From Escherichia phage vB_EcoM_phAPEC6, in the sequence record MK817115.1: a DNA stretch of 64,000 nucleotides. The stretch is one strand, 5' to 3'. Numbering within the stretch: position 1 is the first letter of the stretch; every line of letters starts with the position of its first letter. The notes beneath the pieces are model-generated. The model had not been told where the DNA came from and ran no database searches. It saw only the letters and a list, made by a program, of their open reading frames with translations. Of the stretch, positions 15,370 to 25,339 are shown piece by piece. Both the position numbers and the translations under genes were made by a program.

Positions 15370-15741
15370 TTATGACATACGCTTATTATGAATGGAATTA
15401 TGAATGGATTTTAAATAATTATATAATTTTATCAATCCACTACCAGTAGCTACAAACAGTAGTGCTGTTGGTATCATACATCCAAACATGGTTATTAATT
15501 CATGTATTTCCATACCATCACTATTTGGTCCCACATCAAATATAACAACCAAAACAACACCTAAAATGCTTAGACAATAATATCCCATAAAGACCATAAA
15601 AGTGATATATCCGGCACTTGATTTAATATTACATAACATATTATACACTGGATTAATACAGAAGAAGTATAATAACCATACCAGTGTTCCAGTACTGAAC
15701 ATAATAATTGAAATAATGGAAAATATCTCACGGTAACTCAT
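15370..15741 (-). CDS. Small multi-pass membrane protein (paralog family member)
   Basis: 123 aa, mostly hydrophobic; in a tandem run of similar-sized hydrophobic ORFs. Confidence 0.6.
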   Translation of the reverse strand: MSYREIFSIISIIMFSTGTLVWLLYFFCINPVYNMLCNIKSSAGYITFMVFMGYYCLSILGVVLVVIFDVGPNSDGMEIHELITMFGCMIPTALLFVATGSGLIKLYNYLKSIHNSIHNKRMS

Positions 15742-15742
15742 A

Positions 15743-16105
15743 TTATTTCCTCATACCCAAACGTTGGTGGATTTCAGAGATCTTTATATACAATAGTACC
15801 ACAAGGTGCAGTACTAAACAACATATAATTACGGCTAATACCAATGAACATATCATAAGACCGAAGGTTATTGTATTCAAAGAGGATGTGAACAGTCCAA
15901 TTATTAATACAATAAAACCAAAATTGAATACTGTACCCAACACAGTATATGCTGGACTATATCTCTTTTGGATTACATCATATATATTTGATAATGGTCG
16001 CTTATGGAAGTACTTCCCAATGCACACGAATGCATTCAGTGAGAAGATAAATGTATACGCCATTACTAGTAATTGACCAACGAAAGATAATTCTATCCCG
16101 TTCAT
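15743..16105 (-). CDS. Small multi-pass membrane protein (paralog family member)
   Basis: Start set to ATG 16105 (MNGIELSF, GAGG RBS), which abuts the upstream stop; hydrophobic. Confidence 0.55.
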   Translation of the reverse strand: MNGIELSFVGQLLVMAYTFIFSLNAFVCIGKYFHKRPLSNIYDVIQKRYSPAYTVLGTVFNFGFIVLIIGLFTSSLNTITFGLMICSLVLAVIICCLVLHLVVLLYIKISEIHQRLGMRK

Positions 16106-16106
16106 A

Positions 16107-16475
16107 CTAACCTCGTTTACGTTTTTTAATTGTACTGTGCATCTTTTCGAAATAGGGAACCAAAACATATTGAACAGTTTGCCAGATAACCATTAGATTA
16201 TGCACTGCACCACCAAGGATACCAAACACTAGAACAATAATTGCCATAATAGGATCACCGTCTACCATACCCCATTTAAAGATATGTAAAATCCAAGCAA
16301 TGACTAGACAAAATAAACTAAGCCAATACGTAATGAAAAATCCGGCTTGTAATTCATAATCATCAGCAATTTCATCGTATACCGTTTCTAAAAATGATAC
16401 ACAAAAGAATTTACCAATTATAACCACAGTACTAATAAACAGCATAGCAGTTAAGATAATAAGAGCAATTTCCAT
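16107..16475 (-). CDS. Small multi-pass membrane protein (paralog family member)
   Basis: 122 aa hydrophobic with basic C-terminal tail (KKRKRG). Confidence 0.6.
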   Translation of the reverse strand: MEIALIILTAMLFISTVVIIGKFFCVSFLETVYDEIADDYELQAGFFITYWLSLFCLVIAWILHIFKWGMVDGDPIMAIIVLVFGILGGAVHNLMVIWQTVQYVLVPYFEKMHSTIKKRKRG

Positions 16476-16789
16476 TACATCCCTCGTTTACGCTTTTGGT
16501 TGCGTCTAAATTCTGTTAGTCCACGGCTAATCGGCGGCATCAGACTACATAAAAAAGTAACAGTTGTTGGTAGTAACATCAAGTCAATCATTGCAGTGTT
16601 ATCTGGTGGTTCAAAAACCAAAAAATACACACAAGAAACACTAATAATGGTTGATCCGATAAAAGGAATACAAAATTCTTTTATCTGTTTTTCAACATAA
16701 TCAAACATCTTGAGTACAAATAAAAATCCAACCCAACACATAATGAAATAGAATGAATACAACGTGTAAATCAATGTTACGATATCCAT
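16475..16789 (-). CDS. Small multi-pass membrane protein (paralog family member)
   Basis: 104 aa hydrophobic, basic tail (RRNQKRKRGM); start overlaps upstream stop. Confidence 0.6.
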   Translation of the reverse strand: MDIVTLIYTLYSFYFIMCWVGFLFVLKMFDYVEKQIKEFCIPFIGSTIISVSCVYFLVFEPPDNTAMIDLMLLPTTVTFLCSLMPPISRGLTEFRRNQKRKRGM

Positions 16790-17127
16790 TAGTACCTCGC
16801 ATCAGGGACTTTAGCACGTAATTTATGAACGACTGGGAACAACAACAAACTTACATATGCAATAGTTGAACCCCAATAGAATACTAATACAATTGGTTCA
16901 CCATTAGAACGGAAACCTCTACTAATCATTGAGTAGTGAATAATAGGCATAATCATCGCCATACCAAACCATGCGTGTAATTTTAATTGCAGCATGTTAT
17001 CAGCGATGAATACTGAAATTGGTCGTTTAAAGAACCACATCAGAAAGTAGAATCCAGCACTAATAATATAGTACAAAGTACTAACTTTCATATACCACGG
17101 CAGTAAATCAATAAAGTACTCCATCAT
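16789..17127 (-). CDS. Small multi-pass membrane protein (paralog family member)
   Basis: 112 aa hydrophobic; C-terminal KLRAKVPDARY resembles the family tail. Confidence 0.6.
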   Translation of the reverse strand: MMEYFIDLLPWYMKVSTLYYIISAGFYFLMWFFKRPISVFIADNMLQLKLHAWFGMAMIMPIIHYSMISRGFRSNGEPIVLVFYWGSTIAYVSLLLFPVVHKLRAKVPDARY

Positions 17128-17471
17128 TCCTCCGGTATCTTATTTCGAAGTTCAATCATAACACAACAAATTTTAATGGTCAAGTAAAAAACTACACATA
17201 TCATACCCAATGTACCGTAAACTGCGGAGAATGCTGGCAGTACCTTTCCTGTGAGTGTTGCTACAATACATGCTATCAATGTTGATGCAAACAACGATTG
17301 ATTAATGAAAGAATTCATAAAATCTTCACCATTACGCTTATAGAATTGTCGTTTAAAATACCATCCTAGAAACATAACTACCCAAAATGTTACATAACCT
17401 GTTAGAATAATCCCTGCAATTGAATGTGCAACAGAACTACTCTTTAAAAACTCAAGATAAGCTTCAAACAT
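17124..17471 (-). CDS. Small multi-pass membrane protein (paralog family member)
   Basis: 115 aa hydrophobic; tail ELRNKIPEE; 4-nt overlap with neighbour. Confidence 0.6.
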   Translation of the reverse strand: MFEAYLEFLKSSSVAHSIAGIILTGYVTFWVVMFLGWYFKRQFYKRNGEDFMNSFINQSLFASTLIACIVATLTGKVLPAFSAVYGTLGMICVVFYLTIKICCVMIELRNKIPEE

Positions 17472-23659: not shown

Positions 23660-24055
23660 TCAAAATAAATTCATTTCATGTGCGTATTGTGGTTCAAGAT
23701 AAGATAAGTTTTTGAAACTGTCTTTCAATTCCGCATCATCTACGTACACAGTACCAGGTACATTCCCCATAGTGAAGCCAACCCAAACAGTCATGTTTCC
23801 AGTTCCTAAGCGGGGCATTGATAGCGTCCCGTCAGGTGAAACATCAAACGCTACACTAAAGTCATCCGTTACAACTTCCGAACCATTTTCCAGAATAATA
23901 CAACCACGTTCTTTAAGCTTCTGAATGTGGATAGCAGCCTCTACTGCACGTTTAAAGTTATAATAAGACTCTTTATCCTCGAACATTGATTGTTTAACCA
24001 GACGCTTGTTTAGCTCGGTTACTTTGTGCATTTGACGCATTACTTCAACTCCCAC
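23660..24055 (-). CDS. Hypothetical protein
   Basis: 131-aa ORF. Confidence 0.55.
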   Translation of the reverse strand: MGVEVMRQMHKVTELNKRLVKQSMFEDKESYYNFKRAVEAAIHIQKLKERGCIILENGSEVVTDDFSVAFDVSPDGTLSMPRLGTGNMTVWVGFTMGNVPGTVYVDDAELKDSFKNLSYLEPQYAHEMNLF

Positions 24056-24294
24056 AGTTGTAGAATTTCATAAGAGCCTGGTGGTGCTGGATTGATAATC
24101 TCAGGGTATTCAGTACTGTTAGGATTACCACCAGCATTGAACTCAGCAAGTAATAATTCGAGTTCATTCCTATCATGTACAACAAACACGCAATATCCAG
24201 TTCCTTCTTCAAGAACTGTAGTTGATCCCGCACAATCCCATACGGCATCAATACATAATAATTCTTTAGTGTTTTTATTACGCAACGCAAACAT
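24040..24294 (-). CDS. Hypothetical protein
   Basis: 84 aa; AGGAG RBS; preferred over the overlapping 24045..24347 frame. Confidence 0.5.
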   Translation of the reverse strand: MFALRNKNTKELLCIDAVWDCAGSTTVLEEGTGYCVFVVHDRNELELLLAEFNAGGNPNSTEYPEIINPAPPGSYEILQLWELK

Positions 24295-24303
24295 ATATGT
24301 CTC

Positions 24304-24648
24304 CTATCGATTCGGCATATTCTTTCGTAGTCGCAAGAGAAATTCAACCACTGACCATGTTGTAATGAAGGCTATATAAGTTGCAAGGAATCCAGTAAGA
24401 ATAAATGCAACCAGCGTACTACCATTTGGGGAATCAGTTTTAATGCCGATGACACCATCGGCTACAGTGAAACATGTAGCCATTAATGTGTAACCTACGT
24501 ACAACACAAAGAAAAACTCATTCTCCATTGAAGGATAGAAACGGTTAAACACTTTATAAAATTTAAAGTACAGTAGGATTATACCAACAAAGGCATAGAA
24601 TGTAAACAGTGTTGTTATAATATATGAGATTAGGTTCAAATTATACAT
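24304..24648 (-). CDS. Small multi-pass membrane protein (second cluster of the family)
   Basis: Start set to ATG 24648 (GGAG RBS); hydrophobic; tail LRKNMPNR. Confidence 0.55.
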   Translation of the reverse strand: MYNLNLISYIITTLFTFYAFVGIILLYFKFYKVFNRFYPSMENEFFFVLYVGYTLMATCFTVADGVIGIKTDSPNGSTLVAFILTGFLATYIAFITTWSVVEFLLRLRKNMPNR

Positions 24649-24649
24649 A

Positions 24650-24997
24650 TCAACGCTCCGGTAGATTATCACGTAATGTTTTAATTCGATGATACATTTT
24701 CATACCAATATTACCAAAGATACCATATCCAAGTACTAAAATGTATGCAATAAGCATAGTAATAATTACTATAGTGCCAAAACTATAATGTACACTACTG
24801 ATACCCATTGTAGTTTCAACGATTATTTGAGAAACTGAAAGAATCAAAAGTACAACTACAATTGGATGATTTGGGTACATTCGGTTGAACAACGTTTTGT
24901 ACTTAAAGAAGCACAGTACTCCACCGAATAAGAAGTAAACAATGTAAATGCAAGCAACAGCATAGGCAAACATGTTAGTGTAATAAATCATTACCAA
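24650..24997 (-). CDS. Small multi-pass membrane protein (second cluster of the family)
   Basis: 115 aa hydrophobic; tail LRDNLPER. Confidence 0.6.
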   Translation of the reverse strand: MVMIYYTNMFAYAVACIYIVYFLFGGVLCFFKYKTLFNRMYPNHPIVVVLLILSVSQIIVETTMGISSVHYSFGTIVIITMLIAYILVLGYGIFGNIGMKMYHRIKTLRDNLPER

Positions 24998-25000
24998 TCC

Positions 25001-25339
25001 TTACTTTTCAGGGATATTAGAACGCCATATATCAATGCGATGAACTAGTCCAAAGAACAACCATACTGGAACGGCAGCTATCATAACAACAAATGAAAAC
25101 CCAGTCAAGACCGATACCAGATTTAATTCATCAGTACTATACCCACATATCAGTACTTCTAATATTCCCCACGTACATGCACAAAACATCAAGAATGAAA
25201 TTGGGGCATCATAGTAGATACGTTCATATAAAGTAGTGTATCGGAAGAATGCAATAATGTAGCAAAACATATAATACACCCAAACCAAAGATACTACATA
25301 AAATGATACTTTGTTTATTAATTCAAAATATTGTTCCAT
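25001..25339 (-). CDS. Small multi-pass membrane protein (second cluster of the family)
   Basis: 112 aa hydrophobic; tail WRSNIPEK. Confidence 0.6.
   Translation of the reverse strand: MEQYFELINKVSFYVVSLVWVYYMFCYIIAFFRYTTLYERIYYDAPISFLMFCACTWGILEVLICGYSTDELNLVSVLTGFSFVVMIAAVPVWLFFGLVHRIDIWRSNIPEK

Follow-up and report, generated by a model that had tools for sequence, protein, structure and literature searches.

In a stretch of 64,000 nucleotides (nt) of Escherichia phage vB_EcoM_phAPEC6 DNA (record MK817115.1; hereafter the window), ten small minus-strand open reading frames (ORFs) encoding predicted membrane proteins lie in two arrays. Seven are adjacent at 15370-17809 (array A, m7 to m1) and three occupy 24304-25339 (array B, m10 to m8), confirming the layout of seven plus three genes that an earlier sequence-only reading of this DNA had described. 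Array B lies ~6.5 kb upstream of array A, in a separate transcription unit headed by a gene for a protein kinase. By megablast, the 11-kb region around the arrays shares 99.7% identity with the 348-kb Asteriusvirus vB_Eco_slurp01, an Escherichia phage, and 87-97% with other jumbo coliphages (e.g. 121Q, PBECO4, SP27 and Sharanji).

The start codons were taken from the near-identical GenBank record and are backed by ortholog alignments. Array A opens with m7 (17471-17809, 112 amino acids [aa]), which is followed by m6 (17124-17471, 115 aa), m5 (16789-17124, 111 aa, with an alternative ATG at 17127), m4 (16475-16789, 104 aa), m3 (16107-16475, 122 aa), m2 (15743-16105, 120 aa) and, as the last gene, m1 (15370-15741, 123 aa). 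Array B begins with m10 (25001-25339, 112 aa) and continues with m9 (24650-24991, 113 aa; the ORF extends to 24997) and m8 (24304-24648, 114 aa; the ORF extends to 24672). All ten products are thus 104-123 aa long. In the range of ~105-140 aa given earlier, the figure of 140 aa came from an over-long call of m2, the longest ORF of which reaches 16168 (141 aa) and overlaps m3 by 62 nt; its orthologs start at an internal ATG. The stop and start codons, previously described as overlapping, do so by 1 nt at four junctions (m7/m6, m6/m5, m5/m4 and m4/m3), whereas the other four are spacers of 1 nt (m3/m2, m2/m1 and m9/m8) or 9 nt (m10/m9). A GGAG/GAGG-type Shine-Dalgarno sequence precedes every one of the ten starts, and it sits within the tail of the upstream gene except for m9 and for the first genes, m7 and m10.

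Each product shows three Kyte-Doolittle peaks and a grand average of hydropathy of 0.6-1.0, the weakest peaks of the ten being those of m5 (Kyte-Doolittle values of 1.40-1.85). The N-terminus has 0-1 lysines plus arginines and the C-terminal tail 2-7; in between, loop 1 mostly has 3-5 and loop 2 mostly 0. By hydropathy and the positive-inside rule, this concentration of Lys/Arg in loop 1 and in the tail predicts an N-out/C-in topology for all ten. The AlphaFold2 model of m10 contains three long helices and a short loop-1 helix, with moderate confidence (predicted local distance difference test score 69.8, predicted template modelling score 0.44). All ten combine a length of about 100-130 aa, three hydrophobic segments and an N-out/C-in charge bias, the features by which we delimited the family, and the predicted topology, with three hydrophobic segments in 10/10, agrees with their earlier description as small multi-pass membrane proteins.

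Pairwise BLASTP gave best values of 1.5e-9 for m9-m10, 1e-5 for m8-m9, 6e-4 for m6-m7 and 1e-3 for m1-m10, and the remainder were insignificant; therefore, profile methods were needed. Orthogroups were defined by position, from the syntenic regions of six other Asteriusviruses and Salmonella phage Munch. Comparisons between orthogroups by hhalign reached 85-98% probability over 91-118 columns, with reversed controls at 3.2% or less. Matches that were colinear over nearly the full length linked array B with m6 (93.8%) and m7 (85%), m6 with m5 (95.2%) and m3 with m1 (87%). The m3-m2 match was 73.5%, covering 41 columns, and the Munch protein 13712 matched both m3 (96.6%) and m2 (95.3%). We divided the ten into subfamily I (m5-m10) and subfamily II (m1-m4), with m4 standing between the two. 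The profiles of the subfamilies matched each other at 93.3% (E 2.7e-7) over 106 columns, as compared with 7.0% for the reversed control, and 20 column-shuffled controls stayed at 0.3% or below.

The window contains seven other small ORFs with multiple transmembrane (TM) segments, all on the minus strand (22561-22812, 32783-33160, 33609-33935, 33993-34235, 43261-43686, 43683-44105 and 62468-62665). These seven reached no more than 3.4% in the profile comparison, and none was matched by the family hidden Markov model (HMM). Of all six-frame window ORFs with 50 aa or more, this HMM matched exactly the ten array genes, at E values of 1e-10 to 1e-28, the next best being 0.025; no further members were found in the 164 of 348 kb scanned (the window and record positions 70376-170375). 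When HMMs were built with one group left out at a time, each member still ranked in the top ten of the six-frame ORFs of the window, at E values of 4e-14 to 3e-7 for all except m5 (m7, 1e-9; m4, 9e-9; m2, 3e-10; m1, 2e-12; m8, 4e-11). The value for m5, 0.01, was the weakest, yet it stood above all of the non-family ORFs. By HMM, the orthologs in Klebsiella phage K64-1 scored E 1e-24 for that of m5 and 2e-35 for that of m1. In addition, the subfamilies are connected through intermediate sequences: one bridging homolog (P0073) matches the HMMs of m4, m3 and m6, and other intermediate homologs mix motifs, such as FFKR with H-D-K-I-P-E.

In an alignment of 58 sequences, 58/58 have a Phe where TM1 ends on the cytoplasmic side, and 57/58 have an H/R in the C-terminal helix. 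The cytoplasmic end of TM1 follows the pattern [ILV]-x-x-[FY]-F, then a basic residue or Cys, and the C-terminal cytoplasmic helix follows [LI]-x-x-x-[HR]-x-[KN]-[IL]-...-[KR]. Individual members carry the motifs WYFKR (m6), FFRY (m10), GFLF (m4), GKFFCV (m3), GKYFHK (m2) and YFFCINP (m1). The mean column conservation is 0.94 in the C-terminal tail and 0.55 in TM1, as against -0.06 in TM2, -0.27 in loop 2 and 0.02 in TM3. Conservation centres on the cytoplasmic face, with variation tolerated in TM2, the periplasmic loop and TM3. The basic tail of the [RK]xNxP type noted earlier is present, as R-x-[NK]-[ILMV]-P, in five members, namely m5 (L-R-A-K-V-P-D-A-R-Y), m6 (L-R-N-K-I-P-E-E), m8, m9 and m10 (W-R-S-N-I-P-E-K). 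The other five carry different basic ends, in which H/R-x-x-[IL] is followed by K/R-rich sequence; the tails of m7, m4, m3 and m1 are R-D-K-I-R-G-D-F, F-R-R-N-Q-K-R-K-R-G-M, H-S-T-I-K-K-R-K-R-G and H-N-S-I-H-N-K-R-M-S, respectively. The conserved 'P-E' of the tail partly coincides with the Shine-Dalgarno sequence (CCGGAG). Since the Pro is retained where its codons form no Shine-Dalgarno sequence (m10 and the Turkey5 paralogs), the tail motif is constrained at the protein level too.

Searches with tblastn using m10 or m6 gave matches confined to 35 Asteriusvirus records, and a word-indexed search of 5.8 billion proteins gave close orthologs only, apart from a single Klebsiella phage protein. 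RaK2-like relatives were reached when 1.84 billion cluster representatives were searched exhaustively with HMMER, which yielded 61 matches at E values up to 1e-3; of these, 59 are 89-130 aa long, nearly all have 99-130 aa, and nearly all cover almost the full profile. Those with names are listed as 'membrane protein' or 'hypothetical protein' and come from RaK2 (gp226), K64-1, Muenster and phiKp_21, and all of the named representatives are from RaK2-like jumbo phages. The GenBank orthologs are RaK2 gp226, K64-1 gp386-393, and 121Q gp207-209 and gp224-232. The 'Phi92_gp231/233/234' notes in the record of phage ph0011 were rejected as a lead, as the phi92 genes are unrelated small ORFs that the family HMM does not match.

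PHROGs places nine of the ten proteins in seven families, all of 'unknown function': 19285 (m8, m9 and m10), 19454 (m7), 19046 (m6), 27396 (m5), 33258 (m4), 26405 (m3) and 27618 (m1). Eight of these placements have E values of 1e-50 to 1e-70 and that of m8 only 2e-4; m2 is in no PHROG, its best value being 0.07, to 26405. The PHROG and GenBank entries hold the same proteins and their orthologs; there they stand as seven unrelated families, whereas here they form one superfamily with two subfamilies and a shared topology, motifs and operon context. This superfamily is not described in the Asteriusvirus and RaK2-like phage papers (Sharanji, PMC11895373; CBB, PMC5259590; fEgEco12, PMC13070987) or in a review of jumbo phages (PMC13282480). 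In the CBB genome, 22 ORFs are reported to fall into paralog groups and 43 to encode conserved putative membrane proteins, without deeper analysis (PMC5259590).

It is highly improbable that the ten are unrelated small hydrophobic genes, alike merely by TM composition and length: the mostly insignificant BLASTP pairs, the dispersal over seven PHROGs with m2 in none and the E value of only 0.01 for m5 would accord with this, but the full-length colinear profile matches lie far above the reversed and shuffled controls and the other TM proteins of the same phage, the Phe and the H/R recur at the same positions across the 58 sequences, intermediates connect the subfamilies, and 59/61 matches of the exhaustive search share the size and nearly full-length coverage. 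Taken together, as judged by profile comparison, the ten genes are one superfamily, in which m4 and m5 are the least securely placed members. It arose by old tandem duplication in an ancestor of the RaK2-like jumbo myoviruses. The sequence-only reading had proposed a single paralog family, to be checked by all-against-all alignment; the alignment did detect similarity between members, weak at the pairwise level and decisive only with profiles.

The next gene upstream of array A, with which it probably shares a transcription unit, encodes a P-loop/AAA-type ATPase (17875-18645, minus strand). It is a homolog of NrdC.10, with about 40% identity to T4/RB69 nrdC.10 over 81% of the query (tblastn, E about 1e-42), and it scores 23.5 bits with Pfam AAA, against a cut-off of 21.2. 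The ATPase gene directly precedes the array in four lineages: Asteriusvirus, Munch, K64-1 and a 324-kb metagenomic phage contig. Munch has 4-5 members, and its annotation places a terminator behind the last of them and none between array and ATPase gene; K64-1 has eight members behind the ATPase gene; and the metagenomic phage has nine, with an ATPase that is 57% identical. By best-hit assignment, the paralog order is similar in all lineages, running from the ATPase through subfamily I to m4, m3, (m2) and m1. Array A, the main one, is old and made up of distinct, ordered orthogroups, and in the four lineages it invariably stands directly behind the ATPase. In T4-type phages, unlike here, nrdC.10 is not followed by membrane-protein genes; a linkage of this kind was rejected there, as the RB69 neighbours NrdC.9 and NrdC.8 lack TM segments. 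The linkage is specific to RaK2-like jumbo phages.

A cassette composed of a hairpin and a sigma-70-type promoter occurs in six minus-strand copies in the window, with 0 expected by chance. It consists of AAGGGTTGACTTCGGTCAGCCCTTTT followed by TG-n-TATAAT, and forms a terminator-like hairpin with a 12-bp stem and a T-run, the stem holding a TTGACT -35 box. One copy (18674-18710, TTGACT-18-TATAAT with TG) lies just upstream of the unit comprising the ATPase gene and array A. Another (26355-26389) heads the unit of the kinase gene (annotated as such from 121Q), a 93-aa gene and array B. All six copies are intergenic, the repeat being placed at 18683-18708 and 26364-26389 in these two and at 20864-20889, 21789-21814, 27449-27474 and 32217-32242 in the other four. 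The repeated cassettes appear to punctuate minus-strand transcription units of an early type. A weaker promoter-like site (17839-17867, minus strand), a consensus match of TTGACA-17-TACTAT over an 8-bp hairpin, is situated between the ATPase gene and m7, and a 10-bp hairpin with a T-run on the plus strand only (15341-15364) directly follows the m1 stop codon. A precedent is the RaK2-like phage CBB, where RpoD-like promoters are concentrated among short genes, in a region that was taken to hold early host-takeover genes (PMC5259590). Given this precedent and the cassettes, the promoters of which are consensus matches, early co-transcription of the arrays is likely. The placement of the arrays in an early region, as first proposed, accordingly holds in the sense of a region of short genes with sigma-70-type cassettes that is presumed early by the RaK2-like precedent.

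The ratio of nonsynonymous to synonymous substitution rates (dN/dS) was 0.10-0.42 in unsaturated ortholog comparisons (0.33-0.42 for m6), indicating that the array genes are real and under purifying selection. They nevertheless diverge far faster than the flanking genes. In phage A4, the ATPase is 98% identical at the protein level, as compared with 26-67% for the m1-m7 orthologs, for which dS is saturated; in ph0011, the ATPase is 59% identical and the array proteins 73-86%. The ATPase and array alleles are therefore uncoupled, implying recombination breakpoints at the boundary between them. Megablast coverage to A4 is limited to 17873-23658 of the window, the block between the arrays. Moreover, m1 is 63% identical to its counterpart in BF17 and 85% to that in ph0011, whereas m6 is 97% identical to BF17 and 81% to ph0011; such patterns, differing from gene to gene, indicate mosaic recombination.

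The comparison of copy number among relatives, which the sequence-only reading had suggested, revealed that the number of members varies. Array A has seven copies here, in BF17 and in A4, eight in ph0011, 8-9 in 121Q, and eight in Turkey5/JNE01, and array B has three in most Asteriusviruses and one in A4 (range 1-3). In 121Q, gp228 and gp229 are two ORFs that result from a split of the m4 ortholog (121Q locus L004, 13985-14300). In Salmonella phage SD-1_S14, m6 is cut to a 90-nt ORF (locus L016, 5991-6080). We treat this as weak evidence and did not accept it as a natural deletion, since with 677 features in 311 kb the record looks heavily fragmented, and assembly errors may be present in it. 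Small genes of Turkey5/JNE01 within array B (locus L003, starting at 5521, 6245 and 6571) and after array A (15805) were considered as additional members and proved to be non-family by hhalign, so that array B has three members there, not six. Non-family small genes interleaved with or appended to the arrays were seen in Turkey5 (locus L003, 5521-5874, 6245-6948 and 15805-16158) and in K64-1 (locus L010, 11556-11998). Among the non-family array-associated genes, a 42-aa ORF ending in LLQWYVKVIQSKE is common to K64-1 and Munch.

We tentatively interpret the arrays as early accessory inner-membrane effectors that serve exclusion and/or anti-defence, a reading to which we give somewhat less than even confidence. 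The sequence-only reading had suggested diversified inner-membrane effectors, with superinfection exclusion, anti-defence or lysis timing as roles, and its interpretation is supported in part. In the scheme favoured here, the host RNA polymerase would transcribe the arrays early from the hairpin/promoter cassettes, the array mRNAs would be translated as coupled polycistrons, and the products would insert into the host inner membrane. The variable membrane-embedded or periplasmic part of each paralog would then engage a different inner-membrane target of the host or of a competitor phage, and the conserved cytoplasmic face would provide a common activity or anchoring. The outcome would most likely be of the conflict type: DNA entry by superinfecting phages would be blocked and/or membrane-bound host defence or stress effectors would be neutralised. 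T4 Imm and Sp, HK97 gp15 and P22 SieA are small inner-membrane exclusion or accessory phage proteins, which are early, evolve fast and lie in variable, non-essential regions. The array products are likewise small, predicted membrane proteins that are hypervariable and evolve fast; early expression, suggested for them by promoter matches, would be a further resemblance. In the known examples, a lone gene encodes a protein of one or two TM segments, and, unlike the arrays, they include no ordered three-TM paralogs and no link to an ATPase; no homology to them was detected. The arrays may be dispensable, to judge from the split m4 of 121Q and the differences in copy number.

Several considerations weigh against an effector role. 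Pfam, PHROGs, NCBIfam, PADLOC, PDB (by sequence) and BFVD (by fold) yielded no family of known function for any member. No Pfam or PHROG match carries a superinfection-exclusion annotation, and the sole match among the PADLOC defence models was a chance-level hit of m7 to PycTM (E 0.026, 12 bits). The functional part of the interpretation derives from architecture and evolutionary behaviour, the predicted N-out/C-in topology from hydropathy and the positive-inside rule, and the presumed early expression from consensus promoter matches. One common cytoplasmic partner would explain the conserved face as well as divergent targets would. Furthermore, the ordered orthogroups and the constant adjacency of the ATPase are not the pattern expected from a plain set of interchangeable effectors; conserved order, one-to-one orthogroups and an adjacent ATPase are more typical of a multi-subunit module.

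Array A might instead encode the paralogous subunits of one hetero-oligomeric inner-membrane complex, which the co-transcribed NrdC.10-like ATPase would assemble, energise or dock via the cytoplasmic motifs. Translational coupling would then set the stoichiometry, and the complex would serve a core early task of very large phages, such as a membrane remodelling or transport step. The position of the ATPase gene in the four lineages, with no terminator annotated in between in Munch, would fit such a complex, as would the paralog order and one-to-one orthogroups kept across genera, the joining of the genes by stop/start overlaps or 1-nt spacers, and the location of all of the conserved residues on the cytoplasmic face. 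We nonetheless consider it unlikely, because the alleles of the ATPase and the array are uncoupled in A4 and ph0011, the number of members varies (4-5 in Munch, seven here and 8-9 elsewhere), and one member is split in 121Q. In addition, array B belongs to a different transcription unit, at a distance from the ATPase, and T4-type phages have nrdC.10 without such membrane genes. A more elaborate proposal, in which array A and the ATPase would form a conserved early module of 5-9 three-pass subunits, with the face made up by the Phe and the C-terminal helix binding the ATPase, and would serve a membrane task peculiar to these giant phages, such as the early remodelling or gating of the host inner membrane, appears quite doubtful; to our knowledge, no phage machine composed of paralogous three-pass subunits and an ATPase is known.

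A role in lysis timing, in which the products would act as holin- or antiholin-like factors of the class I type and control the release or activation of a membrane-tethered endolysin of the signal-anchor-release type, is improbable. Class I holins are small, with three TM segments, an N-out/C-in topology and a charged C-terminus, and the array products resemble those of the lambda S105 type in having about 105-125 aa, three TM segments, a predicted N-out/C-in topology and a mostly basic cytoplasmic tail. The RaK2-like endolysin does bear an N-terminal TM domain, and the paper reporting it names no holin (PMC5259590). Nevertheless, no holin or lysis family was matched in Pfam, PHROGs or NCBIfam at E values up to 0.1-1, and there is no sequence relationship to class I holins. 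Such a holin is one gene with a dual start in a lysis cassette, and ten ordered copies would be unprecedented, whereas the arrays are ordered paralogs whose upstream promoters are of the sigma-70 type rather than late-type. Their neighbours are the ATPase, denV, kinase and RCC1-like genes, with no lysis cassette, and they are far from the endolysin gene (in 121Q, gp532 versus gp207-209 and gp224-232). Furthermore, the sister phage fEgEco12 has a T4 T-like holin candidate annotated at another locus: Gp406c (220 aa, genome positions 246852-247514) is holin-like by HHpred, at 89.9% to T4 holin T (PDB 6PX4_B; supplement of PMC13070987). It is a likely candidate for a true holin of the Asteriusviruses, far from the membrane arrays, and its presence weakens the lysis-timing option. 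The 220-aa gene that follows m1 in the window (14666-15328) was also considered as a T-like holin and was rejected, having no TM segment and no PDB match.

Other features of the region are as follows. A 628-aa ORF (18713-20599, minus strand) repeats a 42-aa segment exactly (FKIKANEVHNNLYNYDKVDYVNSSTKVLITHPVYGDFWQTP), at a spacing of 63 aa, and has no Pfam match; at its position, relatives carry homing/HNH endonuclease genes or other inserts. The 83-aa multi-TM ORF at 22561-22812 is near-invariant across the Asteriusviruses, and K64-1 has a similar membrane protein of 80 aa, the C-terminus of which is also similar. On the plus strand, at ~13020-14685 and upstream, another paralog family is encoded, convergent with array A; relatives have it annotated as RCC1-like 'DNA condensation' repeat proteins. 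The strand switch between the RCC1-like genes and array A coincides with a change in the sign of the GC skew near 14 kb, and the same convergence is found in Munch and the metagenomic relative.

RaK2-like jumbo phages are candidates for therapy and biocontrol, and most of their ~600 genes have no known function. The superfamily is clade-specific and was previously unmerged, and its arrangement as an ordered array with an ATPase is unusual. Here, seven database families of 'unknown' function are merged into one superfamily with a predicted topology, invariant residues and an operon partner, providing a concrete, testable unit that represents ~3% of the gene content. The combination of an old, ordered array with fast mosaic divergence makes it a good place to seek new mechanisms of conflict at the membrane, between phage and host or among phages, or a new ATPase-linked assembly, and even if its function should prove ordinary, the annotation of a whole phage clade would be improved all the same.

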